DNA of 32,000 nucleotides from Ignicoccus pacificus DSM 13166 (GTDB lineage: Archaea > Thermoproteota > Thermoprotei_A > Sulfolobales > Ignicoccaceae), in assembly GCA_025340205.1 (NCBI GenBank), contig CP006868.1, positions 1,200,001 to 1,232,000 on the forward strand. The letters are read 5' to 3'. This document shows positions 173-25,266 of the stretch, in pieces. The translations under genes and the position numbers were made by a program. The notes under the pieces were generated by a model. The model saw only the letters and a program-made list of their open reading frames with translations. It was not told where the DNA came from and made no database searches. The stretch's first letter is position 1. Each line of letters opens with the position of its first letter.

Positions 173-233
173 AAGGGATGACTGAGTTTATTCCGGGCTA
201 CCGAGCGGTGAGGATTGGACTACCGCGAGGACC

Positions 234-437
234 TCAGTTGGGATCCATCTCGGCCGCCATTTCGGTGAGTATAGCGAGGCCTCCGAAGAGTATGGCCGCC
301 CCAGTGGTCAGGAGCACTATGTTGGTTGCCAAGTCTGCTGGAATAGTGAACAAGTGAGTGGCGGTAGTCATTATGAAGTCGATAACTATGGCTATTACCA
401 TCAATAGCGTGAATAAGCTGTTAATCTTCCCTATCAC
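234..437 (-). CDS. Small membrane protein (67 aa, two hydrophobic helices), unknown function
   Basis: ORF track. Two long hydrophobic segments (LFTLLMVIAIVIDFIM and IVLLTTGAAILFGGLAIL). GTG start. No recognisable family. Confidence 0.4.
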   Translation of the reverse strand: MIGKINSLFTLLMVIAIVIDFIMTTATHLFTIPADLATNIVLLTTGAAILFGGLAILTEMAAEMDPN

Positions 438-444
438 TTCCCAT

Positions 445-460
445 CCCCATAGCTATGGGG
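445..460. repeat. Perfect 16-bp palindrome CCCCATAGCTATGGGG between the TatD-like stop and the small membrane protein start
   Basis: Read directly from the sequence. The element is self-complementary over all 16 nt. Confidence 0.9.
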
Positions 461-478
461 AGGAAAGGGCTTTTACAT

Positions 479-1324
479 TTAAGGAGGTGATACCGAGAAG
501 CTCCTCACCACGTTCTCGACGTTAAGCTTGTACAGGTAGTCCTCGCTGACCTTCTCCTCGTTCAGTAACTCCAGTTGTACCTTCGCCATCTCCCACGGGT
601 AGATCACTATTCCGGGCCTCTTGGGATCGTCTATGTGGTCGCTCTCAACCATGTAATTAGGGGGTAACTCGAGGGCCTTCTCCAAGCTCCCCTTGACTCC
701 TGGGGCAGTTGCGGGAACTCCTAGCTCCACCGCGGCCTTGAGCGTCTTTCCCCTGGCATGGTGCATTATCACCCTCTCCGACTTAGCGCCTATCCTCCTC
801 ACCCTCTCCTTGACGTCGAGGGCGCTTACCCTCCCCCCTTGCTCTAGGTGTAAGTGCACCACCACGTCGTAGTCTTTGGATATCTCTATAGCTCTGTCCA
901 TAATGTGCTCAGCTATGACCACCGAAATAGGGTTGGTCTTGTAGTGCTGCCTTCCTACCTCTCCCACGCCCTGAAGCCTTCCCTCCTTTACGGCCTTTTC
1001 CACTAAGTCCATTACCTTCATGCCAAAATCGAGCACTTCCTCCGGCTTCATCGATCCCAAGTGCTTGTCCACGTCGGCAGGGTGAAAGCCGTAAAGACAA
1101 GAGACCTTAAGGCCGTAGCTCCTAGCCTTCTCGCACTCCTTGATCGTTAACTCCAGCGTTTTCTCATAGCCCTCCAAGTTGCCTTCAATTCCATAGTGCC
1201 AAGGGCTCAGGCCCACTATCGCTAGGAACCAGCCTCCGGCTTCCTTGAACTTGGGAGCGATCTTTTCCATTCCGAGACCCCTTACGGGATTGGTGTGGGT
1301 GTGAGCATCCGCTATGGGAACCAC
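479..1324 (-). CDS. TatD-family / amidohydrolase-fold metal-dependent hydrolase
   Basis: N-terminal metal-binding motif IADAHTHTNP (compare TatD DxHxH). Later VVHLHLEQG and MHHARG histidine clusters, and a C-terminal ESDHID motif, are typical of TIM-barrel metallohydrolases. 281 aa. Confidence 0.65.
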   Translation of the reverse strand: MVPIADAHTHTNPVRGLGMEKIAPKFKEAGGWFLAIVGLSPWHYGIEGNLEGYEKTLELTIKECEKARSYGLKVSCLYGFHPADVDKHLGSMKPEEVLDFGMKVMDLVEKAVKEGRLQGVGEVGRQHYKTNPISVVIAEHIMDRAIEISKDYDVVVHLHLEQGGRVSALDVKERVRRIGAKSERVIMHHARGKTLKAAVELGVPATAPGVKGSLEKALELPPNYMVESDHIDDPKRPGIVIYPWEMAKVQLELLNEEKVSEDYLYKLNVENVVRSFSVSPP

Positions 1325-1455
1325 TTCATTCCCCCGGAGCGCTTTGAGGAATAGCTTATGAGGAGAGGTTTAGGAAACCATCACGGCTCCGGTCCCTTCA
1401 CGCCGTCTGGAAGGGCGGCGAATGAGAGGGATCCCCGTTGGGCGCCACACATCCC

Positions 1456-5389: not shown

Positions 5390-6658
5390 ATGGGGTCGGT
5401 GAAAGTGAGTTTGAACCTTTTCGACAGAATTCGCTCCGAGAGGAGCCCGCGGATATTTGTAAACAAGGAGGTGTTGGATCAAAGCTACGTGCCAGAGAAG
5501 ATGATCACGAGGGAGCACAAGGTTGAGCAGCTCGCCAGATACTTCCTCGACTTTCTAGACAACCCGGGTTCTACATACCATCCCGTTCTCATAACAGGTA
5601 AGCAAGGAGTGGGAAAAACGCACATGACCTTTAGGTTCTTCAGAGACCTCAAGGAGGCGTTCGTTAGAGAGCATAGGAAGGATCTGGTCATGGCGTATGT
5701 GAACTGCCACTTCAGGAATAGGTCGTTAATGCAGATACTGAGGACGGTGGCGACGTCCCTTAGGGCAAACGTTCCCACGAGGGGAATTTCGGCAGATGAG
5801 GTCTTCAACTCTATTGCTAGAATTCTGGAAAAGAAGGACATGTACATGCTATTGGTTCTCGATGACTTCCAATACGCCCTTCATTACGATCCACAGATAG
5901 CCTCTTTCATTGCTAGAATATACGAGCAGACGGACGAGCTGAAGAAGAAAAGGATTCAAAGCATAATAATAATGGATGATGCATCGAAACTAGATATGTA
6001 TACAAAGGACGAGAGGGTGAGGAGCTGGAAGGATAGACACATCTATATGAATCCCTACAAAAAGGAGGAACTTCGACTGATTTTGGAGGATAGGAGGGAG
6101 AAGGCCTTCTACCCGGACGCCGTACCGGACGAGGTAATAGACAGAATCTCCGAGCTCCTAGGAATAGACACCCATCCCGGATATCCCATCTCCGGAAGCG
6201 CCAGATCCGCTATAGAGACGCTAAGGCTTGCCGGAGAGAGGGCAGAAAATAGGGGAGACATGTTCGTCACGCTGGAGGACGTGAACTACGCTTGGGGAGA
6301 GCTGACGAAGCACGGAGACATAGCCTTGATCTCGGAGGCCTTAGAGGGACTGACGGACCATGAGCTCTTGTTCCTCTACTCTTTGGCAAGCGTCCTCATG
6401 GCTGGAAACGATCCGGCTAGGATAGGCTTAGTGGAAGAGGAGTATAGGAGCCTATGTGAACTACTAGGAGTTGAGCCGAGGAAGCACACCCAAATATATG
6501 AGTACGCAAAGAGGTTGGCTGAAATAGGGATAATCTGGAGGACTACAAATAACAAGGGTATGAGAGGAAGGAGCAGCCTTCTAACAATAGAATATCCTTT
6601 GGAACCCTTCCGAAACAGAGTGGCTGAGATACTGAGGAGGAGAGGCTATGAGATCTGA
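5390..6658 (+). CDS. cdc6: Orc1/Cdc6 replication initiator (AAA+ plus C-terminal winged helix)
   Basis: Collinear with Sulfolobus Cdc6 proteins. Walker A GKQGVGKT (aa 70-77), Walker B LVLDDF (aa 155-160), sensor-2-like GSARSAIETL, and a C-terminal WH segment (RLAEIGIIWRTTNNKGMRGRSSLL). Confidence 0.85.
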   Translation: MGSVKVSLNLFDRIRSERSPRIFVNKEVLDQSYVPEKMITREHKVEQLARYFLDFLDNPGSTYHPVLITGKQGVGKTHMTFRFFRDLKEAFVREHRKDLVMAYVNCHFRNRSLMQILRTVATSLRANVPTRGISADEVFNSIARILEKKDMYMLLVLDDFQYALHYDPQIASFIARIYEQTDELKKKRIQSIIIMDDASKLDMYTKDERVRSWKDRHIYMNPYKKEELRLILEDRREKAFYPDAVPDEVIDRISELLGIDTHPGYPISGSARSAIETLRLAGERAENRGDMFVTLEDVNYAWGELTKHGDIALISEALEGLTDHELLFLYSLASVLMAGNDPARIGLVEEEYRSLCELLGVEPRKHTQIYEYAKRLAEIGIIWRTTNNKGMRGRSSLLTIEYPLEPFRNRVAEILRRRGYEI

Positions 6659-6869
6659 GGAGGTCATTCTCAGAAGACCAACCATGATCAAGGCATTGCT
6701 AAAGCTCAAGGAGGAGCCCAGGAGCCTTAGTTCCCTTGCTAGGGAATTGGGAACCAATAGGAAGAGGCTCAAGGAGTATCTGAAGTTCCTGGAGGAGGAG
6801 GGATACGTGGAAAGGATAGGAGGCGTTTACATGATAAAGAAGGTCCCCAGCTTCCTCAGTACTCGCTAG
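6648..6869 (+). CDS. Small winged-helix DNA-binding protein (73 aa), unknown role
   Basis: wHTH-like pattern SLSSLARELGTNRKRLKEYLKFLEEEGYVERIGGVYMI. The ATG overlaps the cdc6 stop region by 11 nt and is preceded by a GGAGG-type SD. Its 3' end overlaps the mcm 3' end by 14 nt. Confidence 0.5.
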   Translation: MRSEEVILRRPTMIKALLKLKEEPRSLSSLARELGTNRKRLKEYLKFLEEEGYVERIGGVYMIKKVPSFLSTR

Positions 6870-8922
6870 CGGGCTTGAAGCACCCGGGCCTCTTCTCATA
6901 TATCGTCCCATCGTTCCTGAACATCTTTATGGCCTCATCCACTACCTCGGCTTCTATACCTTTCTTCCTCGCTTCCTCCACAAGCTCCTTTAATGGCACA
7001 CACTCCTTACCCTCAGCTAATTCCTTGAGTAACTTTGATACCATCATCATCTTGCTTAATTTGCTTACAGGTCTTCCAGTTAAGATCACATCTATATCTA
7101 TTCTTCCCGTCTCCACGTCCAAGCCCACCGTGTTGAGGAACGCGAGCATCATCCTCACCGCTTCCACGGCGTCCTCAGCCAACACGCTGTTCCTCAGCGC
7201 CATTCTTGCATGAGCTTCGCTCATCCTCACCAGAGCTTCTAGTTGCCTCGCCGTTATGGGAACCCCCATCTCGGGATTGTTAGCGGCCTTTGACCTCAGA
7301 TCAACGAAGAAGTTTTCAATTATTTTCTTCGCGTCCTCGGTGAGCTTCGGTGAGACCGTTTTCTTAGCATAAACTATGTACTTCTTCAGTAAGTCAATAG
7401 GTATCTCAGGCCTTATCTTCTCCGCTTCCTTGTGTACATTGAGTATGTACCTAACCAACCTCCTATCGTTCATCGGATCCGGTCTATCTTGAAGCACGAA
7501 GATCAAGTCAAACCTCGAGAGTATGCTCGGGGGCAAGTTGATGTTCTCCGCAACGGTTCTGTTAGGTAAATATCTTCCGTACCTAGGGTTCCCAGCCGCG
7601 AGGACTGCACACCTAGCGTTGAGCTTAGCCACTATTCCGGCCTTTGCTATCGACACAGTTTGCTGCTCCATAGCTTCGTGTATCGCAACTCTGTCCTCTT
7701 CCCTCATCTTGTCTATCTCGTCTATTACGGCCACTCCTCCATCTGCAATTACCAGAGCTCCGGCTTCTAGGTAGAACTCCCCTGTGACCTTGTCCCTTAC
7801 TACTGCTGCAGTAAGTCCCGCGGCGGTGGATCCCTTTCCGGTAGTGTAAACGCTTCTCGGGGCGACCCTGGCGGCGTACTGCAAGAGCTGGGACTTAGCT
7901 GTACCGGGATCTCCTATTATGAGGACGTGGATGTCTCCCCTTATCCTCGTTCCGTCCTCGAGTTGCTTTGGAACTCCTCCGAACAAGGAGAGGGCTATGG
8001 CTTCCTTTATGTCCCACAAGCCGTAGATCGAGGGAGCTATGCTCATCACTATCCTTTTGTGAATCCACGGATCTTTCGCCAACTCTTGGATTTTCTCCAC
8101 GTCTTCGGGCTCTAAGGCTATGTCCTCTAAGACCTTCTGAGACACCTCTATGTTATTCGCATAAATCCTTATCGTGAATATTGCTGCCGATCCCTTCCTC
8201 AAGAGCTTGTCGGGCTTCGCCTCGACTATTCCCACTATGGTTACCTTATCTCCAGGCCTAGCGATGTCAACCAAGTCGTCCTCTACAATTACTTCTATGC
8301 TTCTAGGAAGCTGACCCGCCGGCAGCTCCTCCGGCTTCTCTTGAACCACCATCATTTGCCAGTTGACGTACTCGTTGTCTGGATGATCTGCTAAGAACGT
8401 GAAGGGACCAGTCCTCTTCGGACACTCCTCGTTGGGACACGAGGAAGGGGTGACTATGTAGATCTCGTTTTGAATTACGGGAAAGATCGTTCCGCAAGCC
8501 TCGCATCTGAAGTAAGCCTTCCTTATCCTCTCCTTTACTTGAGTGACCCTTACCAAGATACCTTCAATCATTATTAGTTTTCCTATGTGGATGTCCCTTA
8601 TCTCCCTCAGTTTTACGGTCTCTGGAAGGTTGCTGAACCTAAGGTTGACCTTGTAGTCCTTCCCAGCGTAAGCGGAGGCTATCTCCTTGAGGACCTTCTC
8701 GAACTTGGGTATGTATTCCCTGGGCTTATCGATTATTAGTGAAGCTAACTCTTGACTGAAGTCAATGATATCGTGAAAGTCAACAACCAAGCTCTTCTTC
8801 CTTTCTATAACTATCCTCTTTAGCATCTCCTTATACTTCGCCTTACCCTCTTCGTCTTGGTATCTCTCGATAAATTCCCTAAACTGCTCCTCCGGGGGGA
8901 GCTGCTCTAACTCCAAGCTCAT
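6856..8922 (-). CDS. mcm: Minichromosome maintenance (MCM) replicative helicase
   Basis: Zn finger CEACG...CPNEECPKR, Walker A GDPGTAKS, Walker B VIDEIDKM, arginine finger SRFDLIF, and a C-terminal WH. 688 aa, with no intein-sized insertion. Confidence 0.95.
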   Translation of the reverse strand: MSLELEQLPPEEQFREFIERYQDEEGKAKYKEMLKRIVIERKKSLVVDFHDIIDFSQELASLIIDKPREYIPKFEKVLKEIASAYAGKDYKVNLRFSNLPETVKLREIRDIHIGKLIMIEGILVRVTQVKERIRKAYFRCEACGTIFPVIQNEIYIVTPSSCPNEECPKRTGPFTFLADHPDNEYVNWQMMVVQEKPEELPAGQLPRSIEVIVEDDLVDIARPGDKVTIVGIVEAKPDKLLRKGSAAIFTIRIYANNIEVSQKVLEDIALEPEDVEKIQELAKDPWIHKRIVMSIAPSIYGLWDIKEAIALSLFGGVPKQLEDGTRIRGDIHVLIIGDPGTAKSQLLQYAARVAPRSVYTTGKGSTAAGLTAAVVRDKVTGEFYLEAGALVIADGGVAVIDEIDKMREEDRVAIHEAMEQQTVSIAKAGIVAKLNARCAVLAAGNPRYGRYLPNRTVAENINLPPSILSRFDLIFVLQDRPDPMNDRRLVRYILNVHKEAEKIRPEIPIDLLKKYIVYAKKTVSPKLTEDAKKIIENFFVDLRSKAANNPEMGVPITARQLEALVRMSEAHARMALRNSVLAEDAVEAVRMMLAFLNTVGLDVETGRIDIDVILTGRPVSKLSKMMMVSKLLKELAEGKECVPLKELVEEARKKGIEAEVVDEAIKMFRNDGTIYEKRPGCFKPASEY

Positions 8923-9515
8923 CTCTCCTCACCCGTCAAGAGGACCTTCTCGTACCACACGTCGATCATGTACTTTAGCTCGTTTACCAAGTGGATCTCC
9001 TCCGGCGTGCACCTCTCTCTGAGCTCGACGGGCACTTCCTTGCTACTTACTACATATTTCATCATCTTGAGGAGCCTTATTTCAGCTATTTCTTCTACGT
9101 CGTTCTTTACTTTCATCAGCTTATTCATTATCGAGAATATGTCGTTCATGTTCCCCTCGAACTCTCCTCTCCTTATGAGCTCCTCCGCCTTCTCTCCTAT
9201 CAACTTTACCATTTTGTAGAAATTCTTCGGCAACTGGACTGGATAAGGGTCGTCCTTGTGCTTGTTTTCAAGGAACTTATACTTGCTTATCTCCTTCGAT
9301 AACTTCACTATGTCCTCTTCCCTGCTGTACTTAGCATATCCCCTAGCTACGAGCTCCTCTGCTAACCATCGAGGGAGATCTATTTCCATACCCTTTCCCA
9401 ATCTTAACAGCTCCTCTCCGTTGAAGACGTCGACCAATTCCTTCAATATCATTACCTTTACTTTTTCCTCCATAAATTTTTCCATCTCTAGGTCTATTGC
9501 TAACTCGAGCTTCAC
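8919..9515 (-). CDS. GINS complex subunit (Gins23-like), co-transcribed with mcm
   Basis: 198-aa helical, K/E-rich protein. Its TGA overlaps the mcm ATG (ATGA overlap). A gins23-mcm operon is established for Sulfolobus. The family assignment rests on context, not on a strong motif. Confidence 0.5.
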   Translation of the reverse strand: MKLELAIDLEMEKFMEEKVKVMILKELVDVFNGEELLRLGKGMEIDLPRWLAEELVARGYAKYSREEDIVKLSKEISKYKFLENKHKDDPYPVQLPKNFYKMVKLIGEKAEELIRRGEFEGNMNDIFSIMNKLMKVKNDVEEIAEIRLLKMMKYVVSSKEVPVELRERCTPEEIHLVNELKYMIDVWYEKVLLTGEER

Positions 9516-9590
9516 GGTCCCCGATGACCCACTAGAGTAGCACTCGCTTTAATCAAGGGGACTCCGCGAGCAAAGTAGTGGTAACACGCT

Positions 9591-10571
9591 TTGAGCAGCG
9601 CGTACGAGATGCTGTGGGCAGAAAAGTACAGGCCGAAGACCCTAGACGAGATAGTGGATCAAGAGGAAATAGTTGCCAGGTTGAAGAAATTCGTTGAAGA
9701 GAAGAACGTGCCTCACATGCTCTTCGCCGGTCCCCCTGGAACCGGAAAGACCACCGCCGCCCTTGCCCTAGCTCATGACTTATATGGAGAGAATTATAGG
9801 CAATACTTGCTCGAGCTCAACGCGAGTGACGAGAGAGGAATAGACGTAATAAGGACTAAGGTAAAGGAGTTCGCAAGGTCTAGGACGCCTCCAAACGTTC
9901 CTTTCAAGATAGTCCTCTTAGACGAGGCGGATAACATGACTGCTGACGCCCAACAAGCCCTCAGGAGGCTTATGGAGCTCTACTCCGCTACCACTAGGTT
10001 CATCCTAATAGCTAACTTCCCTAGCAAGATCATCGAGCCCATCCAGTCCAGATGCGCTTACTTCCGCTTCAAGCCCTTGCCCAAGGATAAGGTAGTGGAG
10101 AGACTCATGTACATATGCAAGAACGAGGGAGTTCAGTGCGAGAAGGAGGCCTTGGAAGAGATATACGAGCTCTCTGAAGGTGATATGAGGAAGGCCATAA
10201 ACATACTCCAAGCTGCAGCCGCCCTCGGGAAGGTTACCGTTGATGCGGTCTACAAGGCGATAGGCTACGCTCATCCAGCTGAGATAAGGGAGGTCATAAC
10301 TAAGGCCCTTAATGGAAACTTCATGGAGGCTAGCAAGCACTTGAGAAAGTTAATGTTGGAATACGGCCTCTCCGGAGTCGACGTGATAAAGAGTATTCAC
10401 AAGGAGATAATGAGTAATAACCTCAAGATAGATGACAGACTAAGGGTGCTCATCGCTGACTACGCCGGGGAGGTCCAGTTCAGGATGACCGAGGGAGCGG
10501 ACGACGAGATCCAGCTCCAAGCGTTCCTAGCCAAGCTCGCCCTCCTCGGCCCTCGCTTTAAGTCAGCCTAG
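9591..10571 (+). CDS. rfcS: Replication factor C small subunit
   Basis: [15 protein letters not shown] (RFC box II), [18 protein letters not shown] and SRC motif [11 protein letters not shown]. Near-collinear with Sulfolobus RFC-S. TTG start at 9591; an alternative ATG is at 9609. Confidence 0.95.
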
Positions 10572-10581
10572 GTGACCTTAG

Positions 10582-12075
10582 ATGAAAAAATCAATTCCCT
10601 GGATCATAAAGTATAGGCCTAAGAGGGTCGAGGACGTAGTAAACCAAGAAAAGGCTAAGGAGCTCTTAATCCCTTGGATCAAGAAGTGGCTCTCCGGAAA
10701 CCCCCCTGAGAAGAAGGGAGCTCTGCTCTGGGGACCTCCCGGCGTGGGAAAGACCAGCTTGGTAGAGGCCATCTGCAACGAGTATAACTTGGAAAAAATA
10801 GAGCTAAACGCGAGCGACTTCAGGAGGAAGAAAGACATAGAGAGAATAGCGCTGGTAGCCGCTACCAAGAGACCCTTGCCCCCCAAGAAGGGAAGGATAG
10901 TTCTGCTCGACGAGGTAGACGGTCTATCTCCCAGAGGAGACGAGGGAGCCATTTCAGCTATACTAGAGCTCTTGGAGAAGGCTAGGAACCCGATAATAAT
11001 GACTGCCAACGATCCTTGGGGCCAGCACCTAAGGCCCATAAGGGAAAGGGTGTTAATGGTTGAATTCAAGAGGATCCCTAAGACGAAGGCCTTACCTTAT
11101 CTCATGAAGATATGTGAATCTGAAGGCATTTACTGCGAGAAGCAAGCTTTAGCTTACATATGGGAGAAGAACAAGGGCGACCTCAGAGCTTGCATAAACG
11201 ACATGCAAGCGATAGCTGAGGCCTATGGGAAGATAACTTTAGACCTAGCTAAGGCGCTGGTCGTAGAAAGGGATAGAACCTTAACCCCTTGGGAGATGCT
11301 CCAACACTTGTTCTACGCTAAGTACTTCTGGCAAGCGAAGAAGGCGGTGACGAGTACAGACTTGGACTACGACACCCTCTTCCTCTGGATAGCTGAGAAC
11401 GTTCCCAAGCAGTACGGAGACGATCCCGAGGACCTTTGGAGAGCCATGGAGGCCCTTTCAAGGGCGGACGTTTATTACGGAAGGATAAAGAGGAGGATGA
11501 ACTGGTCCCTCTTGCCCTATTACTTCGAAATGTTAGGCCCCGGGGTCGCTCTAGCTAAGGAGAAGTACCACAAGAGGGCGAGGTGGAGCTACCCGGAGAA
11601 GATAACGCTTCTCGCCAAGACAAAGGAGCAGAGGAGGATTAGGGAGGAGTTAGCTACCTTGCTTTCCCTAACCCAACACGTCTCTAAGAGCTACGCTAAG
11701 GCTGAGATTATTCCTTTGCTCAAGTTCATAGCCCAGCACAATCCTCAGTACTTCGCGAGATTAGCCTTAGGCTTAAGGCTTACTGATGAAATGATAAAGT
11801 TCTTAGCGGGGAAGGAATATAGGACAGTAATAAGGATAAAAGAAAAACTGTTAAAGGAAATGGAGGAGGAGGCCAAGATAAGGGCAGCCAGGGAGGCGAA
11901 GGAGTACTTGGAGAGGAAGGCGCTTGAGGTCGTCGAAGAGGAGAAGGTCGAGAAGTGGGAAGAGAAGAAAGAAGAAAAGGCGGAGAAGGTGGAGAAAAGG
12001 GAGAAGAAGGAAAGGAAGAGGGAGGAGAGGAGAGGAGGATTAACCCTCCTCGACTTCCTGAACAAGAAGAAGTGA
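10582..12075 (+). CDS. rfcL: Replication factor C large subunit
   Basis: PWIIKYRPKRVEDVV, GPPGVGKTS and LLDEVDG. Long K/E-rich C-terminal tail ending in a PIP-box-like LTLLDFLNKKK. Confidence 0.9.
   Translation: MKKSIPWIIKYRPKRVEDVVNQEKAKELLIPWIKKWLSGNPPEKKGALLWGPPGVGKTSLVEAICNEYNLEKIELNASDFRRKKDIERIALVAATKRPLPPKKGRIVLLDEVDGLSPRGDEGAISAILELLEKARNPIIMTANDPWGQHLRPIRERVLMVEFKRIPKTKALPYLMKICESEGIYCEKQALAYIWEKNKGDLRACINDMQAIAEAYGKITLDLAKALVVERDRTLTPWEMLQHLFYAKYFWQAKKAVTSTDLDYDTLFLWIAENVPKQYGDDPEDLWRAMEALSRADVYYGRIKRRMNWSLLPYYFEMLGPGVALAKEKYHKRARWSYPEKITLLAKTKEQRRIREELATLLSLTQHVSKSYAKAEIIPLLKFIAQHNPQYFARLALGLRLTDEMIKFLAGKEYRTVIRIKEKLLKEMEEEAKIRAAREAKEYLERKALEVVEEEKVEKWEEKKEEKAEKVEKREKKERKREERRGGLTLLDFLNKKK
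11991..12039 (+). repeat. 49-nt uninterrupted polypurine (GA) tract inside the rfcL 3' end
   Basis: Counted by hand: no pyrimidine between 11991 and 12039. It encodes the EKREKKERKREERRGG tail. It also explains the spurious antisense ORF 11745..12122. Confidence 0.85.
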
Positions 12076-15481: not shown

Positions 15482-16021
15482 TTAGGCGTTCGCGAACTCC
15501 TTTCCATCTAAGTCTACTAACTCCTTCATCTTGGTGGAGGCTATGGCCTTCGCTTCCTCCAGTATCTTCGCCGCCTCGTGGTCTATGAACACGTCCCCTC
15601 CTATCATGTCCATTCCGAGTCCCTCCGCCGCCAGCTCGTCGAAGCTCTCCACTAGGCTCTCCAGCTCCTCATCTATGTGCGGTATTATTCCTCTGAACTG
15701 CTCTATGGTCTCCTTTAGATCCTTCGCCATTGGTATCACCGCAAACGCCGCGTCGCCGAACGTCAGAGCGGTGTCCAGCCTCAGCTCCGCTTGCTCTAGC
15801 TTTATGTCAAAGGCCATTAGAGCGCTCCTCAGCTTCCTTATGTTAGCTATCTCGCTAGCATATACCTTGGCCCTCATTAAGTCTCCCGACTTCTGAGCCT
15901 CAACTAGCCTCTCCATCAGCATCTTCTCCTTCTGCTCGATTGCGGACAGCTGGTGGTTTAGCTTGTTCCTTACCTTCCTTATCTGATATATCGCCTGAAC
16001 TATCTTCTTCCTGAGCCCCAT
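15482..16021 (-). CDS. cdvB: ESCRT-III / Snf7-family protein (CdvB paralog)
   Basis: Collinear with Sulfolobus CdvB. Compare SGDLMRAKVYASEIANIRKL...LEQAELRLDTA...FAVIPMAKDLKETIEQFRGIIPHIDEEL with CdvB EGDIARATIYAQEISDIRKM...KVRLKLDTV...FPVVRILGELKEQVRGIAPEV. At 179 aa it lacks the C-terminal wH of full-length CdvB. Confidence 0.8.
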   Translation of the reverse strand: MGLRKKIVQAIYQIRKVRNKLNHQLSAIEQKEKMLMERLVEAQKSGDLMRAKVYASEIANIRKLRSALMAFDIKLEQAELRLDTALTFGDAAFAVIPMAKDLKETIEQFRGIIPHIDEELESLVESFDELAAEGLGMDMIGGDVFIDHEAAKILEEAKAIASTKMKELVDLDGKEFANA

Positions 16022-16862: not shown

Positions 16863-17279
16863 GTGGAGGTCATCGACCTAGAATGCGTTAAGGAAGTGGC
16901 TGAGAAGTGGGGACTTAGGTACGTAGTGCTTCATGGTTCTCAAGCAAAAGGGTATGCTAAGGAGTTCAGTGACGTCGACCTAGCTATTAAAGTCGGAAGA
17001 GAACTAAATTTTGTCGAGAGAGGCAGACTTTACGGTGAGATGGAGGAGTGCGTTAGCGGCAAGCTCGACTTAAGCTTTCTAGATGATTGGAATCCCATAC
17101 TCGCTTGGGAGGTCTTAACTAACGGAAAGGTCATTTATGCAAGGGACTTAAATGAAGTAATAGAGGATAAGGTAAAGGCCATAGTAGAAGTATGTGATTT
17201 AGAACCTCTCTTGAAGCTGTCATACAAGGAGAACAAGCGTGCCCTCGCCAGGCTTAGCGGCAAGGGTGTCGAGAGCTAG
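16863..17279 (+). CDS. Nucleotidyltransferase-domain antitoxin (MNT)
   Basis: Pol-beta NTase motif LHGSQAKGYAKEFSDVDLAI (GS...DxD). 138 aa. Immediately upstream of, and overlapping, a DUF86/HepT gene. Confidence 0.75.
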   Translation: MEVIDLECVKEVAEKWGLRYVVLHGSQAKGYAKEFSDVDLAIKVGRELNFVERGRLYGEMEECVSGKLDLSFLDDWNPILAWEVLTNGKVIYARDLNEVIEDKVKAIVEVCDLEPLLKLSYKENKRALARLSGKGVES

Positions 17280-17664
17280 GAAGGCTATAGAGAAGTTGAG
17301 GGGGATAAGCGAAGTTCCACTTGAAGAGTACTTATCGGACGAGGACCTTCAAGCACTATCTGAAAGGTACCTCCACATACTCCTAGAAGCGATATTGGAT
17401 TTGGGGGCCTTCGTATTAGCGAAGAAAGGCGTGTCAGTTGGTACTACATATAGAGATATCGTTGAAGGACTCATAAGAATAGGCGTGATACCCGCTGAGC
17501 TGGGGTATTTAGCGAGGGGAATACCGGGAATGAGAAACGTATTAGTACATGGATATGCGGAAATAAGACATGACATAGTTTACCAGCTATTAAAAGATGA
17601 GTTAGGCGATCTTGTGAGAATATTTGAGAGAATCTTAAAGGAAGCTGAGGAGCTCGACCCTTAA
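17239..17664 (+). CDS. HepT (DUF86, HEPN-domain) toxin
   Basis: HEPN Rx4HxY motif in MRNVLVHGYAE. The more likely start is the in-frame GTG at 17266, which gives a 14-nt overlap with the MNT stop. Confidence 0.8.
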   Translation: MPSPGLAARVSRARKAIEKLRGISEVPLEEYLSDEDLQALSERYLHILLEAILDLGAFVLAKKGVSVGTTYRDIVEGLIRIGVIPAELGYLARGIPGMRNVLVHGYAEIRHDIVYQLLKDELGDLVRIFERILKEAEELDP

Positions 17665-17770: not shown

Positions 17771-18301
17771 TTGTCCCTTCTCGAAAAGGCAAAGGAAAGG
17801 CTTGAGGAGCCAGCAAAGAACGACTTCGTCAAAAAGAAAGTCGAGGACTCTATCTACGAGGCCTTCTTAGCGAAAAAGCTAGTTGAGGAAGGTCTTATCA
17901 GGAACGCTTGTGGGAAAGCCTTCCAAGCTTGGAAAGAATTGCTCTCAGCTCTCCTTTACTTGAAGAAGGACGAGATCTTAAAGCTATTGAAGGATGAAAG
18001 GCAGAAAGAGTGGTTCTTAAAGAGGGGAATATATGCTCCTAGCTCTAGGTTGAAACCTCTGAGCGTGCTCTTGGAGAGAGTGGGCATACGAGACGTAAGC
18101 GCTTGGACCGCTGAAGCGCTTTCCCTTCATACCTACCAATACCATGGACCGGATCCGGAGGGGCTATGGGGAGGGCCAGTGGATAAGGAAGATGCAAAGG
18201 ATCACTTAGAACTGCTCTTGAGGAAGTGGAAGGAATACATAAGCAAGTACTTCGAGAAGTGCTTAGATGAGGACTTGAGGAAGGTTTTGGAAAACGTATG
18301 A
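17771..18301 (+). CDS. PaREP1-family (HEPN-related) protein
   Basis: The helical N-terminus LVEEGLIRNACGKAFQAWKELLSALL and the later EALSLHTYQYHG follow the PaREP1 pattern as I recall it (EEGd...AsEKaW.A...avkA ... LH.n.Y.G). TTG start. Confidence 0.55.
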   Translation: MSLLEKAKERLEEPAKNDFVKKKVEDSIYEAFLAKKLVEEGLIRNACGKAFQAWKELLSALLYLKKDEILKLLKDERQKEWFLKRGIYAPSSRLKPLSVLLERVGIRDVSAWTAEALSLHTYQYHGPDPEGLWGGPVDKEDAKDHLELLLRKWKEYISKYFEKCLDEDLRKVLENV

Positions 18302-18339: not shown

Positions 18340-21300
18340 TTAGCTGGAGAGCTTGAAGGCTCTTCTGCGTAAAATCCTCCTCATGCTTGTGACTATAACG
18401 GCGACCAAAGCGGTTCCCGGAATCCTCAGACCAACGGTCACCGTCGTGTAGTCGCGCTCAGTCAGAGTGATATTGATCGATCCGTTGGGCACGAGGTGGT
18501 AGACGTAGAGCGTTGGATTTGAGGGATCCATCTTGATTATGACTGCTCCATCCTTTACTATGAAGCCCCTTACCACGTCGATATCGATGGGCTCTAACTG
18601 TTCTAGAGTCACATAAACCTTTCCGGTCTTCGGATCTATCAGCCCCACCTCGTCGCCCCATTTGAAGCTGAACAGGACCTTCCCGTCGGCGCTGACGGCC
18701 AGTACTTCTGGGTAAGAGATGTTGTTCAAGATATACAGCGTCGGCGAAGAGTTCAATCCGGTTAGCAGCAGTATCTTTCCGTTTTCCATGTCGTAGCTAA
18801 TAGCTATAGCGTTGGAAGTGTTTGCTATTATCTTTACGGACTGTGGAGGTTCGTTGAGAGTTATATTCAGGTTGAAGTCTATGATCTTTGTCTCACCGCT
18901 AAAGCTCTCCGGGAACTCAATTACTCTCAACACAGTTCCTCCATTAGTGAGGTATACCGCGTACATCGTGCCGTTGTCCTCGAATAATATCGGCCCGTTG
19001 TAGATGTCACTAAAGTAAGGATAGACGTGAGCTAGGTAGTAGGAAGTAGCGTTATCATCTACGTTAAAGTCCGTTCCGTTAAACTTCGCTAACTTAACGG
19101 TCGTTATTCCGAAGTAATATATGTAGAATACGGCATAATCGCTGTATTGAATGGGTGTGGGCGGATAGCCTATGCTTACCTTTCCGACGTAGGTTAACTT
19201 GTCGTCTTCTATCTTGAAAATGCTGATGTTAGTATAGCTACCCGTAGGGTCTATTATTACCAGAGGCGTGTTGTTAAGAACCATCGATGAGATGTAAGGT
19301 GTGAAGGTGTGCTTTGAGGGAAGTATGACGTAGCTCACGTTGATTAGCTTACACGTTCCTCCGCACTCCAGCTTGTAGAGCGTCGTGACGTTGTTGTAGC
19401 CATATAGTACTAAGTAATCTGAGTTGTTGTAGACCAACGTCGATTGCACGAAGTGATCGGTCTGCAAGGATAAGGTCTGGCTCTCTTGAACGTTCAGAAC
19501 TCCCCCATTATCAATCCTCTCAATGGTGAGGGCATGCGCGATGAAAACAGCGCTTAGTGCTATCGCTAGTACCAGCTTCTTCCTCCTCCTTAGGAATGGG
19601 AGGAATAAGGCGAGCAGCGCCGGCACGGGAACTCCTTGACCCTTTACAGTGATTATAGTAGTTGAGGTAGTGTTGATAACTTGATTGTTCAGTGTCAAGG
19701 CAACTCCGTTCAAGCTGTCGGATTGAACCAAGGCGGTACGATTCTCCATGCTCAACCCTATTGAAGGCTTCTGGGTGCTGGCGACGAGCGCTCCGGGGGC
19801 GTAGACCTCTCCGTAGCCCGTGTAGCCGTCGAAGCCCGGAGCGTAGAGGTCCCTAGCCCCGTTCATTACGGCGTATACGTTCTTTCCTATGCTGTAGGCT
19901 AAGGCCACTATTCCAGCCGCTATCGGAGAAGCGTAGCTGGTACCGCTGTCATAGGTCACCATGAAGTTGCTCGTGTTCGCTATAGGCTCTGAGAGCTTAG
20001 CTAAGACAGAGTTCGTGGGATAGATACCCAAGACGTCCTCTCCCGGAGCGGCGAAGGCCAAGTAGGGTCCGTAGTTGCTGAAATCCGCTAGGGTGTTGTT
20101 GACGTCCAAGGCGGCCACGGGATAGGTTCCGGGGCACATCGAGGGGAACTCGAAGCCGTTACTACTGCTCAACAACATGCCCTCGTTTCCTGCTGCAACC
20201 ACTACCGTCAGACCGGCGTTAACCATAGGCTCTACCTCATCTTGGCAAGCTTCTTGGAAAGCGTTGTACTCGCTGGAATCGTACCATCCTCCCAAGCTCA
20301 TGTTAACTACCTTCAGCTCGGGTAAGCTCTGGTGCAAGGTACTCACGTAGCTCGCGGCTCCGGCCAGACTTTCGTCGTCGAAGTAGCCGAAGTCCATGTA
20401 AACCGTTCCGTTGAGACAAGCGCTGAGAGTCGTGCAGTTGCTCGTGGGATACAAGACTATGAGGTCGGCTTTAACCGGGACGACCTTGACTTTTCCGAAT
20501 AAAGCAGGAGGCAATACTCCGGTCACGTAACTTGTTCCGTTGCTCAGCGTCAAGTTGCCGGATATCATGGAGGACACGAAGGTTCCATGTCCTACTACAT
20601 CGTATGGCTCCGTGAGTTGGACGAAGATGACTGTCGTGTCGTTCGAATCTTGGGGCGGCACCACGCAGTACTTGTATATCGTCGCGTTGTAAGGCATGTA
20701 ATACGGCGTTGTTATTCCAAAGATCAGGAAGGCGAGCCAATCCAATATTAGGTCAAACCTCTTTCCATAGAGGTTAGCCACGCCGTAGTCGCTGCACTCG
20801 CCGTTGGATATGAGGTAATCCACGAACGAAGTTATCGCCTTCGCGTTGGCCCAATCCGCATTGACCGGGGCTCCCGGCGCTAGGCCGGAGTCTATTACCG
20901 CTACCTCTACCGTTGAGGCAGAGGAGTTCAACTGAGTTAAGTTAGCCTTGATTGGAAGCACGCCCACGTGGACTGAGTCCAACTGCCATCCGTAGTTCGC
21001 CGTTCCATTAACCACCAAGTAGGCGTTCATCTTGTGGAACCTTACGAGCTTGGGATAACATGAGTACTTCATCGCAATTATTGACTTTAGTGAACTTAGG
21101 TCTTTTACGTGCATCATCTTCATTAAGTGCTTCGTGACTGGTACTACCTTCTTCATTTTAGGACAGAGTATAACGCCTTCCAAGGGTCCTCTGATAGCGA
21201 ACGCGACCGCTCCTAGGATCAAGAGGAGCACCAGCGCCCTCTTCTTGTTCCTAAGGAATAACGCGGGAAGAGCTACCATCGGTATGCCGACTTGTGAAGT

Positions 21301-22413
21301 TTGTGCGGGGCTCGTGGTTAAGCTATCCAAAGCCATGTAGAACGACGAGTTGTAGTATTGGTAATCTTGAGTGAAGTAGTCCACTTCGTAAAGGAGGGCT
21401 ACCTTGTTCTCAGCGACCCTCATAGAGTAGAGGTAATAGCCCACGTAAGCGCTACTTGAGAACGGTAGGTTCACATTAGACAAGTCCTTTGAAAAGATCA
21501 CGTGACCTTCGAAGTCCAATTTGTACAAATAGCCTCCCATATCAGCGCAGTAGACGTAGATCCCATCGTTCGATATCTCCCCTCCTATGCCATAACAAGA
21601 CAGTCCGAGGTTCAGTACTGTAGGATCGGTGCTAACCGTTTTTACTAGGTAAAAGTTGCTACCATCGCTTAGCAACATGGTGTCGTTTGCCCAATCATAA
21701 ACGGAGATCGCATCGACGTGCGTTAACTCGTTTAGGTTACCGCCTCCCAGATAGTTACCTTCCTTGCTTATTATGTAATAGTACTGTGCAAAGGGAGAGA
21801 CAGTCTCTACGTATAAACCTAGGTAGCCTTGTCTAGGGAAGAGTTTCAAGTCGGCACAGAATCCCGTGAAGGTTAACGGCAACCTCTTGGCGAGGACCCT
21901 CCTTAAGCCGTCCTCCGTGATCTCGTACTTGTATATCTCTATATAGAACTTGTTGTAGTCGGTTGTGTTCGGAACAGAAGATGCGAGGTAGAGGTAGCCG
22001 TTGTCGAGGGCCACGGACCCGCAATCGGTATAAGAGGAAGGCGACAAGATGTAGTAAGTATTCTCCTTAATCTTTGAGGGATTATCGGTTATATTAAATA
22101 GGTACAGTGTCATATTTGAATTTATGATTGCTAAGAGGCAGTTTTTGCTGTTAGTCTCAAGGTACGTATCGAATCCATCTCCTTGGAGGGTCACGTTTAC
22201 TGCATTTATCATATTCGTATCGTTGTTTACGAAGAACATGAAGAGCTTACCCGCGCTGGAGGAAATCGCTATGGGTATGTAGGTTCCGCTTGCATAGCAC
22301 AAGTACATGGAGCTAATTCCGTTGTAAGGTCCAAGCGTTATGGGATACGGCATCCACGTTAGGGCACGCGCTAAGACTATTAGAACCGACATAAGCATGA
22401 TAGCTCTTCTCAT
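18340..22413 (-). CDS. 1357-aa multi-module surface protein: N-terminal Tyr/Asn-rich ectodomain, central pre-pro-subtilase (S8), and C-terminal Tyr/Asn-rich ectodomain. The modules are separated by anchor/signal junctions.
   Basis: Uninterrupted ORF. N-terminal signal peptide. S8 triad motifs VAVIDSG (D508), VGHGT (H609), AAGNEG (N743) and SGTSYASP (S826). Three [G/R][I/V]P-hydrophobic-Arg/Lys anchors. About 35 N-X-S/T sequons by manual count. Confidence 0.85.
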   Translation of the reverse strand: MRRAIMLMSVLIVLARALTWMPYPITLGPYNGISSMYLCYASGTYIPIAISSSAGKLFMFFVNNDTNMINAVNVTLQGDGFDTYLETNSKNCLLAIINSNMTLYLFNITDNPSKIKENTYYILSPSSYTDCGSVALDNGYLYLASSVPNTTDYNKFYIEIYKYEITEDGLRRVLAKRLPLTFTGFCADLKLFPRQGYLGLYVETVSPFAQYYYIISKEGNYLGGGNLNELTHVDAISVYDWANDTMLLSDGSNFYLVKTVSTDPTVLNLGLSCYGIGGEISNDGIYVYCADMGGYLYKLDFEGHVIFSKDLSNVNLPFSSSAYVGYYLYSMRVAENKVALLYEVDYFTQDYQYYNSSFYMALDSLTTSPAQTSQVGIPMVALPALFLRNKKRALVLLLILGAVAFAIRGPLEGVILCPKMKKVVPVTKHLMKMMHVKDLSSLKSIIAMKYSCYPKLVRFHKMNAYLVVNGTANYGWQLDSVHVGVLPIKANLTQLNSSASTVEVAVIDSGLAPGAPVNADWANAKAITSFVDYLISNGECSDYGVANLYGKRFDLILDWLAFLIFGITTPYYMPYNATIYKYCVVPPQDSNDTTVIFVQLTEPYDVVGHGTFVSSMISGNLTLSNGTSYVTGVLPPALFGKVKVVPVKADLIVLYPTSNCTTLSACLNGTVYMDFGYFDDESLAGAASYVSTLHQSLPELKVVNMSLGGWYDSSEYNAFQEACQDEVEPMVNAGLTVVVAAGNEGMLLSSSNGFEFPSMCPGTYPVAALDVNNTLADFSNYGPYLAFAAPGEDVLGIYPTNSVLAKLSEPIANTSNFMVTYDSGTSYASPIAAGIVALAYSIGKNVYAVMNGARDLYAPGFDGYTGYGEVYAPGALVASTQKPSIGLSMENRTALVQSDSLNGVALTLNNQVINTTSTTIITVKGQGVPVPALLALFLPFLRRRKKLVLAIALSAVFIAHALTIERIDNGGVLNVQESQTLSLQTDHFVQSTLVYNNSDYLVLYGYNNVTTLYKLECGGTCKLINVSYVILPSKHTFTPYISSMVLNNTPLVIIDPTGSYTNISIFKIEDDKLTYVGKVSIGYPPTPIQYSDYAVFYIYYFGITTVKLAKFNGTDFNVDDNATSYYLAHVYPYFSDIYNGPILFEDNGTMYAVYLTNGGTVLRVIEFPESFSGETKIIDFNLNITLNEPPQSVKIIANTSNAIAISYDMENGKILLLTGLNSSPTLYILNNISYPEVLAVSADGKVLFSFKWGDEVGLIDPKTGKVYVTLEQLEPIDIDVVRGFIVKDGAVIIKMDPSNPTLYVYHLVPNGSINITLTERDYTTVTVGLRIPGTALVAVIVTSMRRILRRRAFKLSS
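18343..18426 (-). other. C-terminal anchor of module 3 (RIPGTALVAVIVTSMRRILRRRAFKLSS)
   Basis: Same tripartite layout: IP motif, hydrophobic stretch, Arg-rich tail. Confidence 0.6.
19531..19635 (-). other. Junction 2 (aa 927-961): anchor GVPVPALLALFLPFL, basic cluster RRRKK, and signal-peptide-like LVLAIALSAVFIAHA|L
   Basis: Read from the translation. The first 12 residues align without gaps to junction 1 (8/12 identical). An A-H-A site follows. Confidence 0.6.
19789..20931 (-). other. Subtilisin-like (S8) catalytic domain, aa about 495-875
   Basis: D508/H609/N743/S826 lie in canonical S8 motif contexts. The D-to-H and H-to-S spacings are longer than in classical subtilisin. Confidence 0.8.
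21193..21291 (-). other. Junction 1 (aa 375-407): anchor VGIPMVALPALFL, basic cluster RNKKR, and signal-peptide-like ALVLLLILGAVAFA|I
   Basis: Read from the translation. The A-F-A site follows the second hydrophobic stretch. Confidence 0.6.
22360..22413 (-). other. Signal peptide of module 1 (MRRAIMLMSVLIVLARA|LT)
   Basis: Basic n-region, 12-residue h-region, and an A-R-A site that fits the -3/-1 rule. Confidence 0.6.
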
Positions 22414-22444
22414 TTATCTCCCTAGGGGAAAGCAGTATCGTAAA

Positions 22445-22452
22445 CTTTTAAA
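22445..22452 (-). promoter_or_regulatory. TATA-like TTTAAAAG upstream of the 1357-aa gene
   Basis: About 35 nt upstream of the ATG at 22413, on the minus strand, inside an AT-rich divergent intergenic region. Confidence 0.35.
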
Positions 22453-22637
22453 CATTAAAATAGATTTGCATTGAACATTATTGGTCATCTTGAACTTAGT
22501 AAAGAGTTATACATTCGCTTCCTCGTTCTTTATAGCTCCAAGGAATATTCAATTCCCTTTGGCATATATTATCCAGTGCGAGATGCGTCCTCAACAGCTT
22601 AAACCTCTCGTGACCTCCCCTAAGCTCTGGTGAACCG

Positions 22638-23800: not shown

Positions 23801-24679
23801 ATGATGTTCGAGGACAAGAGAGTTTTATTGATGAGAAACGGAGAGGTAAGGGTGGTAGTTGGATACGAGCACCCTCCCGGTTGCTCCATAGCTTACTTGA
23901 AGTACGTGTACACCGGAAGGGGACCTTGGAAGGGATTCGAGAGGGTCGTCAAGGAATACACTCCCGAGGAGGTGAGGAAGGGTAGCCTAGTTTATGATCC
24001 GAACTTTGGCTCCCTAGTCCCTTGTGCCTCCCACTCTGAGGTTCTAAGGGCTCCGGATCCCTTGGAGAGAGCCAAGGAGGTTATCTCCTCCCCCAAGGAT
24101 CTCCTCGAAGAAAGGTTCGTGGAACTTTACGATTGCCTAAGGATAAGGGACTTGGGTCTCGGGGGAAGCTTGTTGCTCGGAATACAGCACGAGAACTCCG
24201 ATGTGGATTCCTTGATCTATCCGAGGGGCGACCCTCTTTGGATATGGGAGGAGCTGGAGAACTCTGACTTATTAGAGGAGGAGAGGGAGTGGAGCTTAAG
24301 GGTCTCCAAGCTCTTAGGCTTGCCTCTGAACGAAGTAAAAAGATTGTACTCAAAGGCTAAAAGAGCTATGTTTAAGGGTACTGCGGTCTCCTTTGCCTTT
24401 GTGAAGAAGGATCTGGAGAGGTACGGCTCTTCAGTAGCTGATCCTATTGGGAAGATTGAGCTGGTCCTAGATATGGAACCTTGTCCTGAGGCCTTGTACT
24501 ATCCCCATAGGTGCTGGGCAGGGAGGTACCTCATCGAAAGCTATGAGAGTTCCTTTGTTAAGGTATTCGTAAAAGGAGGAAGGGTGAGGGTAAAGGGATA
24601 CTTGTGGAGGAGAAGTGACGGAACGGAGGTCATAAGGATAGGCGGAAGGGAGGAGAGAGGTTACTTGCTCTTTGCATAG
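23801..24679 (+). CDS. Predicted nucleotidyltransferase (Pol-beta superfamily) with a C-terminal OB-like region
   Basis: GLGGSLLLGIQHENSDVDSLIY fits the G[GS]x9-13DxD NTase motif. Beta-rich C-terminus (GGRVRVKGYLWRRSDGTEVIRIGG). The family (COG1665-like) is recalled, not verified. Confidence 0.45.
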   Translation: MMFEDKRVLLMRNGEVRVVVGYEHPPGCSIAYLKYVYTGRGPWKGFERVVKEYTPEEVRKGSLVYDPNFGSLVPCASHSEVLRAPDPLERAKEVISSPKDLLEERFVELYDCLRIRDLGLGGSLLLGIQHENSDVDSLIYPRGDPLWIWEELENSDLLEEEREWSLRVSKLLGLPLNEVKRLYSKAKRAMFKGTAVSFAFVKKDLERYGSSVADPIGKIELVLDMEPCPEALYYPHRCWAGRYLIESYESSFVKVFVKGGRVRVKGYLWRRSDGTEVIRIGGREERGYLLFA

Positions 24680-25266
24680 AGTATCTCCTTCCCATTAACT
24701 ATAACGTCCACGCTCTTTGCCTTACCCCAGACGAGGACTACGTCTATCATCTTGCTAGCCGGGCATATCTTGACCCAAGGCTTTATGGGAATCATTGTTA
24801 TATTTATAATCATATTCTCGCCGTTAATTGTAGCATTTACCTTGACCCTCTTGCATATGGAACCGCTCAAGGGTACCATTACAACAGTTTGATTGCCCTT
24901 GGATATCATCTCCTTTACGTCACTTAGGAGATACCTCTCGCCGCACTCCAAGCCTTTGATGGTAGAGTTCCAAAACACTTGAGGTTTGGGCTGGGCTCCG
25001 AGCAAGTTGAGAGCTTCCACCTTGCAGACCCAAGGTCCCTTAATCAGTTCGTAAATCTTTATCGGTCCGTTGCTGCAGACCAAGTTGACCGGCCACTTTC
25101 CATGAAGGGAATGAGGAATCGTGGGAGAAGCTATTATTCCGCCGTCCGTTATCCACAACCAGAAGTTCCCTGCGGGGATGATGGCGTTAACGGTACCCGA
25201 TATCACGTGCGCTGAAGCCGTGAATATCGCTATTAAGAGAATGACCCCTACTCTTATACCTCTCAA
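24661..25266 (-). CDS. Secreted hypothetical protein (201 aa)
   Basis: TTG start. Sec-type signal peptide MRGIRVGVILLIAIFTASA|HV. No known motif. Confidence 0.5.
   Translation of the reverse strand: MRGIRVGVILLIAIFTASAHVISGTVNAIIPAGNFWLWITDGGIIASPTIPHSLHGKWPVNLVCSNGPIKIYELIKGPWVCKVEALNLLGAQPKPQVFWNSTIKGLECGERYLLSDVKEMISKGNQTVVMVPLSGSICKRVKVNATINGENMIINITMIPIKPWVKICPASKMIDVVLVWGKAKSVDVIVNGKEILYAKSK

Follow-up and report, generated by a model that had tools for sequence, protein, structure and literature searches.

Several viral glycoprotein polyproteins are cut by signal peptidase, namely flavivirus C-prM-E-NS1, hepatitis C virus E1-E2-p7, alphavirus E2-6K-E1 and bunyavirus Gn-Gc. In the flaviviruses, prM and E have two-helix hairpin anchors, in which the second helix served as the signal of the next protein. 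The cytochrome b/c1 precursor FbcH of Bradyrhizobium japonicum is also the product of one gene, and is split at an internal signal peptide into two membrane proteins. The signal peptidase of the endoplasmic reticulum (ER) cleaves the astrotactins internally, where their second transmembrane (TM) segment, TM2, ends (bioRxiv 10.1101/493858). The tetrabrachion precursor of the archaeon Staphylothermus marinus is one product as well; it is cut between Glu700 and Gly701 into two chains, and a subtilisin-family protease resides on the stalk (PMC5744192). A literature search found no description of an archaeal polyprotein of the signal-peptidase type. Here we analyze IPA_07110, a protein of 1357 amino acids (aa) from Ignicoccus pacificus DSM 13166, a hyperthermophile of the Desulfurococcales. 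Its gene lies within a stretch of 32,000 nucleotides (contig CP006868.1, positions 1,200,001 to 1,232,000), hereafter the window, whose numbering is used throughout. Cells of the genus Ignicoccus have an inner and an outer membrane, and lack a surface layer (S-layer) (PMC3387779; PMC5744192; bioRxiv 10.64898/2026.09.08.750209).

In the reading that we favor, with a confidence that falls a little short of even, IPA_07110 would be a membrane-threaded precursor of three in-frame secretory modules, which signal peptidase would cut into three surface proteins. A membrane-threaded polyprotein is defined here by ectodomains between which lie an anchor, a short turn and an internal signal that carries a cleavage motif, and this succession is found twice in the protein, at aa 375-406 and at aa 927-961.

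Segments of the putative IPA_07110 precursor

The protein consists of three units with the same layout, each comprising a signal-like segment, an ectodomain and an anchor (Table 1). This layout had been proposed in a preliminary description of the same DNA, and all the segments quoted there were found in place. The AxA sites at which the signal-like segments were said to end also stand, but the first segment, SP1, is 17 residues long and not 18. IPA_07110 contains 6 short hydrophobic runs flanked by charges, whereas 2000 shuffles of its residues gave 0.2 on average and never more than 3. Three of these runs are the signal-like segments, in which a basic n-region is followed by 12-15 hydrophobic residues and then by AxA. 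The other three are the anchors, which consist of [G/R][I/V]P, 11-13 hydrophobic residues and an Arg/Lys cluster.

The layout of a Sec signal peptide, i.e., a basic n-region, a core of 7-15 residues and small residues at -3 and -1, fits all three signal-like segments: MRR/AIMLMSVLIVL/ARA, KKR/ALVLLLILGAV/AFA and RRRKK/LVLAIALSAVFI/AHA. Only SP1 is at the N-terminus, as Sec signal peptides are; SP2 starts at aa 393 and SP3 at aa 947. Because neither is N-terminal, and neither has a start codon upstream, we class them as internal signal sequences only. Both nevertheless have a basic n-region, a core of just 13-15 residues and an A-x-A precisely at the end of the run, a layout shared by SP1 and by the signal peptide of a neighboring secreted open reading frame (ORF) at 24661-25266, which ends in ASA before H. 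Moreover, an AxA directly follows the core in 3/3 of the segments predicted to run from inside to outside (N-in/C-out), and in 0/3 of those predicted to run from outside to inside (N-out/C-in). By a rough estimate, such a split would have a probability of the order of 1e-3 if the segments were generic TM helices.

The summed Hessa values of the signal-like segments range from -3.7 to -0.3, which makes them the most hydrophobic stretches of the protein; SP2 is the extreme, with -3.7 over 15 residues. By contrast, the tripartite anchors of the preliminary description are indeed present, but owing to their prolines they are only marginally hydrophobic, with values between +2.1 and +3.6. Since such anchors are weak when taken alone, a strongly hydrophobic partner helix could stabilize them. 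The Arg/Lys clusters are confined to the predicted cytoplasmic side, namely the N-terminus, the two 5-residue loops and the C-terminal tail, as the positive-inside rule has it. In the three long domains, Lys and Arg together make up about 5-6% of the residues, versus about 14% in the cytoplasmic proteins of the window. The density of N-x-S/T sequons in these domains is 2.0, 2.7 and 3.8 per 100 aa, versus 0.19 in 30 other ORFs, i.e., a 10-20 fold enrichment, and the junctions between the units contain none. The only other sequon-rich ORF of the window, at 24661-25266, also begins with a signal peptide. Thus, judged by sequon density and by their low content of basic residues, all three domains look exported and glycoprotein-like, as a three-ectodomain model requires. 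The five crossings (counted after SP1) and three ectodomains proposed earlier are therefore supported, as a prediction, by the charge distribution, the sequons and the signal-like segments.

The likeness of the three anchors bears on a different reading, namely that the [G/R][I/V]P segments are sorting or processing signals, whether sortase/archaeosortase-like, rhomboid-type or specific to a route to the Ignicoccus outer membrane, and that they serve within the chain as well as at its C-terminus. The anchors share the Pro motif, and their mutual likeness exceeds what composition would lead one to expect: anchors 1 and 2 align with a score of 39 against 17.4 ± 4.0, and anchors 2 and 3 with 33 against 16.5 ± 3.5. 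Sortase and exosortase signals have the same tripartite layout, a weak similarity to JDVT-CTERM and Synerg-CTERM can be seen, and as TM segments the anchors are weak and contain helix-breaking prolines. Nevertheless, no CTERM model reaches its cutoff; the best, JDVT-CTERM, scores 14.3 bits against a cutoff of 27 on anchor 2, and anchors 1 and 3 have no match, so that membership of the archaeosortase-type signals was rejected. Crenarchaea are reported to lack archaeosortases as well as their substrates (PMC3387779), and a Pfam scan of the 29 neighboring ORFs reveals no sortase-like, rhomboid or related gene. Among the six-frame ORFs of the window and of five related loci, IPA_07110 is the only one with the [GR][IV]P-anchor pattern or the hairpin pattern described below, and the motif is also missing from a metagenome pattern scan. 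We consider the sorting-signal reading improbable, and the archaeosortase alternative raised in the preliminary description is accordingly disfavored.

The two internal junctions, J1 and J2, are alike in design. Both are compact, with loops of exactly five residues, and they align as G[IV]Pxx-AL-x-ALFL / five basic residues / LVL..L.AV..A, with a score of 55 against 24.4 ± 4.8 for shuffled sequences. The residues that are identical between them are encoded by the same codon in just 2/8 and 2/7 cases. Because the codons mostly differ, this similarity does not stem from recent duplication of the cassette or from gene conversion, and a recent duplication was rejected; the likeness reflects either an old common origin under constraint or convergence. 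The junctions thus look maintained rather than accidental.

The middle unit is a divergent and apparently active S8 subtilase. Pfam PF00082 (peptidase S8) matches aa 502-841 with an E-value of 1.7e-22 and 80.5 bits, compared with a cutoff of 21.8; the domain aligns to subtilisins in the PDB (E 3e-12), and its match in PHROGs is the protease phrog_3677. The catalytic residues occur in order, each within its motif: D508 in VAVIDSG, H609 in GHGT, the oxyanion residue N743 in AAGNEG and S826 in SGTSYASP. The spacing between Asp and His is unusually long, with an insert of 101 residues. The preliminary description regarded this unit as a full pre-pro-subtilase. The S8 domain and a Lys/Met-rich stretch preceding it are confirmed, the latter with 12.4% Lys and 6.7% Met at aa 407-495, but a match to a propeptide family is not: aa 407-505 match neither Inhibitor_I9 nor any other Pfam family, even at E-values up to 10. 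The stalk at aa 845-926 likewise matches no family. The TIGR03921 mycosin model aligns to aa 603-928 with 69.3 bits, far under its cutoff of 278.75, and membership of the mycosins was rejected.

Within the insert that separates Asp from His lies a hydrophobic stretch, FDLILDWLAFLIFGI (aa 553-567; 20713-20757, minus strand), with a Kyte-Doolittle hydropathy (KD) of 2.0-2.5. Beyond the six junction and terminal segments, the protein has no other hydrophobic peak. The stretch contains an Asp and has no basic cluster beside it, and is probably a buried or amphipathic helix, not a seventh membrane segment.

Table 1. Segments of IPA_07110 and elements preceding its start codon, in the order of transcription within the window. 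SP, signal-like segment; sequon, N-x-S/T; AF2, AlphaFold2.
Feature	Residues (aa)	Sequence	Position	Strand	Remarks
TATA-like AT-rich element		TTTTAATGTTTAAAAG	22445..22460	-	about 33-48 nt upstream of the ATG; candidate archaeal promoter, read from the sequence
Shine-Dalgarno-like site (candidate)		GGGAG	22418-22422	-	directly before the IPA_07110 start
SP1	1-17	MRRAIMLMSVLIVLARA, then L (MRR / AIMLMSVLIVL / ARA, then L)	22363..22413	-	basic n-region; 12-residue hydrophobic run (mean KD 2.95); small residues at -3 and -1
Ectodomain 1	18-374		21292..22362	-	orphan, probably beta-rich, glycoprotein-like; 7 sequons, low K+R
Anchor 1	375-387	VGIPMVALPALFL	21253..21291	-	putative stop-transfer, N-out/C-in; summed Hessa +2.1 over 13 residues
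Cytoplasmic loop 1 (predicted)	388-392	RNKKR	21238..21252	-	4/5 residues basic
SP2 (internal, signal-like)	393-406	ALVLLLILGAVAFA, then I407	21196..21237	-	Gly at -6, A-F-A at -3 to -1
Lys/Met-rich stretch	407-495		20929..21195	-	candidate subtilase propeptide by composition and position
Peptidase S8 domain	502-841		19891..20910	-	PF00082, PDB subtilisins, phrog_3677, catalytic motifs
Stalk	842-926		19636..19890	-	last 40 residues 28% Ser/Thr, with sequons
Anchor 2	927-941	GVPVPALLALFLPFL	19591..19635	-	hydrophobic run; sub-threshold JDVT-CTERM match
Cytoplasmic loop 2 (predicted)	942-946	RRRKK	19576..19590	-	5/5 residues basic
SP3 (internal, signal-like)	947-961	LVLAIALSAVFIAHA, then L962	19531..19575	-	ends in AHA; helix in AF2, low confidence
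Ectodomain 3	962-1329		18427..19530	-	orphan, predicted all-beta, one propeller-blade-like stretch at about aa 1225-1271; 14 sequons
Anchor 3	1330-1344	RIPGTALVAVIVTSM	18382..18426	-	[GR][IV]P anchor pattern
Basic cytoplasmic tail (predicted), plus stop codon	1345-1357	RRILRRRAFKLSS	18340..18381	-	Arg-rich

Proposed threading and cleavage

In the favored reading, SP1 would direct the chain to the Sec translocon, with export of ectodomain 1 until anchor 1 and RNKKR halt the transfer. The strongly hydrophobic SP2 would then restart export, now of the subtilase unit, which anchor 2 and RRRKK would halt a second time. SP3 would export ectodomain 3, and anchor 3, together with the Arg-rich tail, would hold the C-terminus in the cytoplasm. 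An archaeal type I signal peptidase is envisaged to cut after A17, A406 and A961, and the outcome would be three membrane-bound glycoproteins in equal numbers (1:1:1). A hairpin made of the weak anchor and the signal peptide of the next unit, as in flavivirus prM and E, would remain on product 1 (aa 18-406) and on product 2 (aa 407-961), while product 3 (aa 962-1357) would retain a single-span anchor. The S8 unit may also remove its own N-terminal Lys/Met-rich segment, in the fashion of subtilases. The exported domains would face either the intermembrane compartment or the cell surface, and the whole might serve to deliver a membrane-tethered protease together with two partner domains rich in beta structure, whose function might be binding or adhesion.

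Cleavage between A406 and I407 and between A961 and L962 is plausible, and would parallel the flavivirus prM and E hairpins, the astrotactins and FbcH. Further precedents exist: in yeast, signal peptidase cleaves internal signal-like TM segments of Sps2 and LepH2 (PMC8277137), and a signal peptide followed by a Ser/Thr-rich stalk and a C-terminal TM segment is the standard layout of crenarchaeal surface proteins (PMC3387779). Several observations nonetheless speak against the proposed processing, or reduce the weight that can be placed on it. In the yeast system, signal peptidase cleaves less well when the N-terminal extension or the hydrophobic core is long (PMC8277137). Arg408, at +2 of the first internal site, could disfavor processing or export. 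Run length is not diagnostic of a signal peptide as opposed to a TM segment, because genuinely polytopic proteins encoded in the window likewise contain uncharged stretches of 12-16 residues. The single-sequence AF2 models of the middle unit and of unit 3 are unusable, with predicted local distance difference test (pLDDT) scores of 35.6 and 37.6, respectively, even though the latter is all-beta. Lastly, IPA_07110 is an orphan found in a single genome.

The reduced cleavage seen behind long extensions and with long cores makes an uncleaved protein a serious rival. In that case the chain would be threaded in the same manner, with the internal sites left uncut, and would form one six-pass membrane glycoprotein (five-pass after removal of SP1), whose ectodomains are set side by side by two tight hairpins and whose AxA motifs are ancestral relics. 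All of the topology evidence fits this form equally well, as do the short hydrophobic runs, which the window's uncleaved polytopic proteins share, and keeping the protease covalently joined to its partner domains provides a simple functional rationale. Against it, the short cores of SP2 and SP3 lead straight into a complete c-region, i.e., AxA with Gly or Ser before it, which none of the anchors has. The synonymous divergence between J1 and J2, furthermore, points to long maintenance of the junction peptides, and so weakens the notion of recent relics. Finally, if aa 407-495 are a true propeptide, self-maturation of the subtilase would break the chain near aa 495, with or without cuts by signal peptidase. 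On balance we view the uncleaved protein as nearly as likely as the cleaved one, with a confidence well below even.

The favored reading can be put in a more specific form. IPA_07110 would then be an archaeal membrane-threaded polyprotein, in which the host signal peptidase cuts two internal sites to yield a subtilase and two partners as stoichiometric, separately anchored glycoproteins, two of them on hairpins. For this full version our confidence is well short of even. If the internal sites are cut, the protein would be the first archaeal example found of a polyprotein strategy otherwise used by enveloped RNA viruses and by a few eukaryotic and bacterial proteins, and it would indicate that the archaeal Sec and signal-peptidase machinery can make several surface proteins from one ORF. 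When an anchor at the C-terminus (N-out/C-in) is followed by a signal peptide (N-in/C-out), the resulting hairpin is topologically neutral, and adjacent secretory genes can thus fuse without misplacing any domain. If the polyprotein reading is true, the cassette G[IV]P..ALxALFL / five basic / LVL..AxA would amount to a reusable linker for fusing secretory genes with their function kept, and might also hold sorting information in an archaeon with two membranes. If the chain stays uncleaved, IPA_07110 would be a multi-domain membrane protease restricted to one species, unusual yet not remarkable. Either reading is readily testable, as I. pacificus is cultured and has already been used for mass spectrometry (bioRxiv 10.64898/2026.09.08.750209). 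With its large size, predicted glycosylation and three distinguishable domains, the protein offers a substrate for studies of export and membrane sorting in Ignicoccus, and a handle on the origin of the outer membrane and its supply with proteins.

Gene integrity, relatives and surroundings

The 4.07-kb ORF (18340..22413, minus strand) is uninterrupted and starts with ATG, and its product is identical (100%) to the deposited IPA_07110, which is annotated as a "hypothetical protein" and carries the UniRef name peptidase S8/S53 domain-containing. The ORF reported in the preliminary description is thereby borne out. That three adjacent genes were joined by an assembly or sequencing error, or that the gene is a recent fusion in decay, is suggested by its occurrence in one genome, by accessory-looking surroundings and by a break of synteny, described below, that falls exactly at IPA_07110. 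Several findings oppose this explanation. A single frame runs through both junctions, where stop codons crowd the two remaining reading frames, so that a single indel cannot have created either fusion. Frameshift or assembly fusion was rejected on these grounds, and the in-frame fusion described earlier holds. There are no leftover stops, starts or intergenic spacers at the junctions, the two junctions share their compact five-residue design, and the catalytic residues of the protease are intact. The GC content at third codon positions (GC3) is 0.60-0.68 in every unit, compared with 0.62 ± 0.06 in neighboring genes, and the codon choices agree. We thus regard an artefact or a decaying fusion as very unlikely indeed, and conclude that IPA_07110 is a genuine lineage-specific gene of I. 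pacificus. Separate translation of units 2 and 3 from internal starts was also rejected, since neither junction contains an ATG, GTG or TTG with a basic n-region.

The outer units have no match in Pfam, the PDB or PHROGs, and show no detectable kinship with each other and no detectable internal repeats. Word-index searches of a set of 5.8 billion proteins with the whole protein, unit 1 or unit 3 returned only IPA_07110 itself or nothing. A phmmer search with aa 845-1357 against 1.84 billion representative proteins returned the query and four weak matches (E 1e-4 to 1e-3), all of which cover the one blade-like stretch of ectodomain 3 and belong to WD40 or NHL/Vgb-lyase propellers. Scans of genome, metagenome and viral contig collections with 8-mer patterns revealed no relative of IPA_07110, and the pattern of the J1/J2 hairpin cassette had no match in the metagenome scan. 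IMG/VR contains no viral relative, and PHROGs nothing beyond the generic S8 match. Given the native codon usage and the lack of viral matches, a foreign or viral origin was rejected.

With the adjacent hypD gene as synteny anchor, the closest loci are found in metagenome-assembled genomes (MAGs) at 79-82% HypD identity; the contig index holds no exact-protein record of either IPA_07110 or HypD. Synteny breaks exactly at the upstream border of hypD (22414-22637). At this place the two closest MAGs carry ThiI-like and metallo-beta-lactamase (MBL)-fold genes (L001, 9388-10002; L002, 1748-2455), and I. pacificus the 1357-aa ORF. Apart from hypD, these two loci have no gene in common with the window. 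On this comparison, IPA_07110 is a lineage-specific insertion at a variable spot.

The gene is flanked by hypD on one side, and on the other by a PaREP1 gene and an MNT/HepT toxin-antitoxin pair. The latter form an accessory-type cluster directly downstream of the 1357-aa ORF: the genes for an MNT-type nucleotidyltransferase (Polbeta/NTP_transf_2) and a HepT-like RNase overlap by 41 nt, and are followed by the PaREP1-family gene (16863-17664 and 17771-18301, plus strand). Directly downstream of hypD lies a 292-aa ORF (23801-24679, plus strand) without a Pfam match, in which a GGSLLLG...SDVDSL motif resembles, by eye, the signature of Pol-beta-type nucleotidyltransferases. The sequon-rich ORF at 24661-25266 (minus strand) encodes a 201-aa orphan with the signal peptide MRGIRVGVILLIAIFTASA followed by HV, 4 sequons (2.0 per 100 aa), no Pfam match and no C-terminal anchor; its product is probably a soluble exported glycoprotein.

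Elsewhere in the window, a replication cluster (5390-12075) comprises the genes for Cdc6/Orc1 (5390-6658), MCM (6856-8922), and the small (9591-10571) and large (10582-12075) subunits of replication factor C (RFC). Between those for MCM and the small RFC subunit is a 198-aa ORF (8919-9515) with no assignment. The short intergenic regions flanking cdc6 may hold a replication origin. A 179-aa protein (15482-16021, minus strand) has a weak Snf7/ESCRT-III match, with 24.3 bits against a cutoff of 27.3, and is probably a CdvB-family paralogue; ESCRT-based division, on which this candidate bears, has been described for Ignicoccus (bioRxiv 10.64898/2026.09.08.750209).

Comparison with known systems

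As in the viral polyproteins, successive ectodomains of IPA_07110 are separated by a stop-transfer anchor, a basic turn of very few residues and an internal signal that ends in small-x-small. Unlike them, IPA_07110 is encoded by a cellular gene on an archaeal chromosome, with native codon usage and no viral relative. The enzyme concerned would also differ, i.e., a single-subunit archaeal type I signal peptidase instead of the ER complex that processes the viral chains. A claim that this logic had not been described outside viruses would be too strong in view of FbcH, although this bacterial precursor gives rise to subunits of the respiratory chain, and its one internal signal follows a polytopic protein and not a single stop-transfer anchor. 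The astrotactins likewise speak against such a claim (bioRxiv 10.1101/493858). Astrotactins 1 and 2 resemble IPA_07110 in their succession of signal peptide, extracytoplasmic domain, TM1, short loop, TM2 and large extracytoplasmic domain. They differ in being vertebrate proteins, in having one hairpin and not two, and in the disulfide linkage of their fragments, and there is no sequence relationship.

The middle unit by itself is built like membrane-anchored subtilases such as the mycosins of type VII secretion and the type-I anchored exoenzymes of Crenarchaea: a signal precedes an S8 domain that carries an insertion, and a linker leads to the TM anchor at the C-terminus. To our knowledge, no membrane-anchored subtilase sits in frame between two other anchored pre-proteins.

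Like IPA_07110, tetrabrachion comes from the Desulfurococcales and is a beta-rich surface glycoprotein made from one gene and associated with a subtilisin-family protease, STABLE. In tetrabrachion, however, the cut is not at a signal-peptidase site, and the protease is the product of a separate gene and is placed on a coiled-coil stalk. Ignicoccus, in contrast to the tetrabrachion system, has no S-layer, and the likeness between the two is one of description. By this analogy, the tetrabrachion precursor is the closest archaeal parallel, albeit with a different cleavage logic. Taken together, the Sec signal peptide, the crenarchaeal C-terminal TM anchor and the S8 protease were known already, and the principle has precedents in viruses and in a small number of cellular proteins. 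The novelty lies in the combination of these building blocks, twice over, in one archaeal gene.

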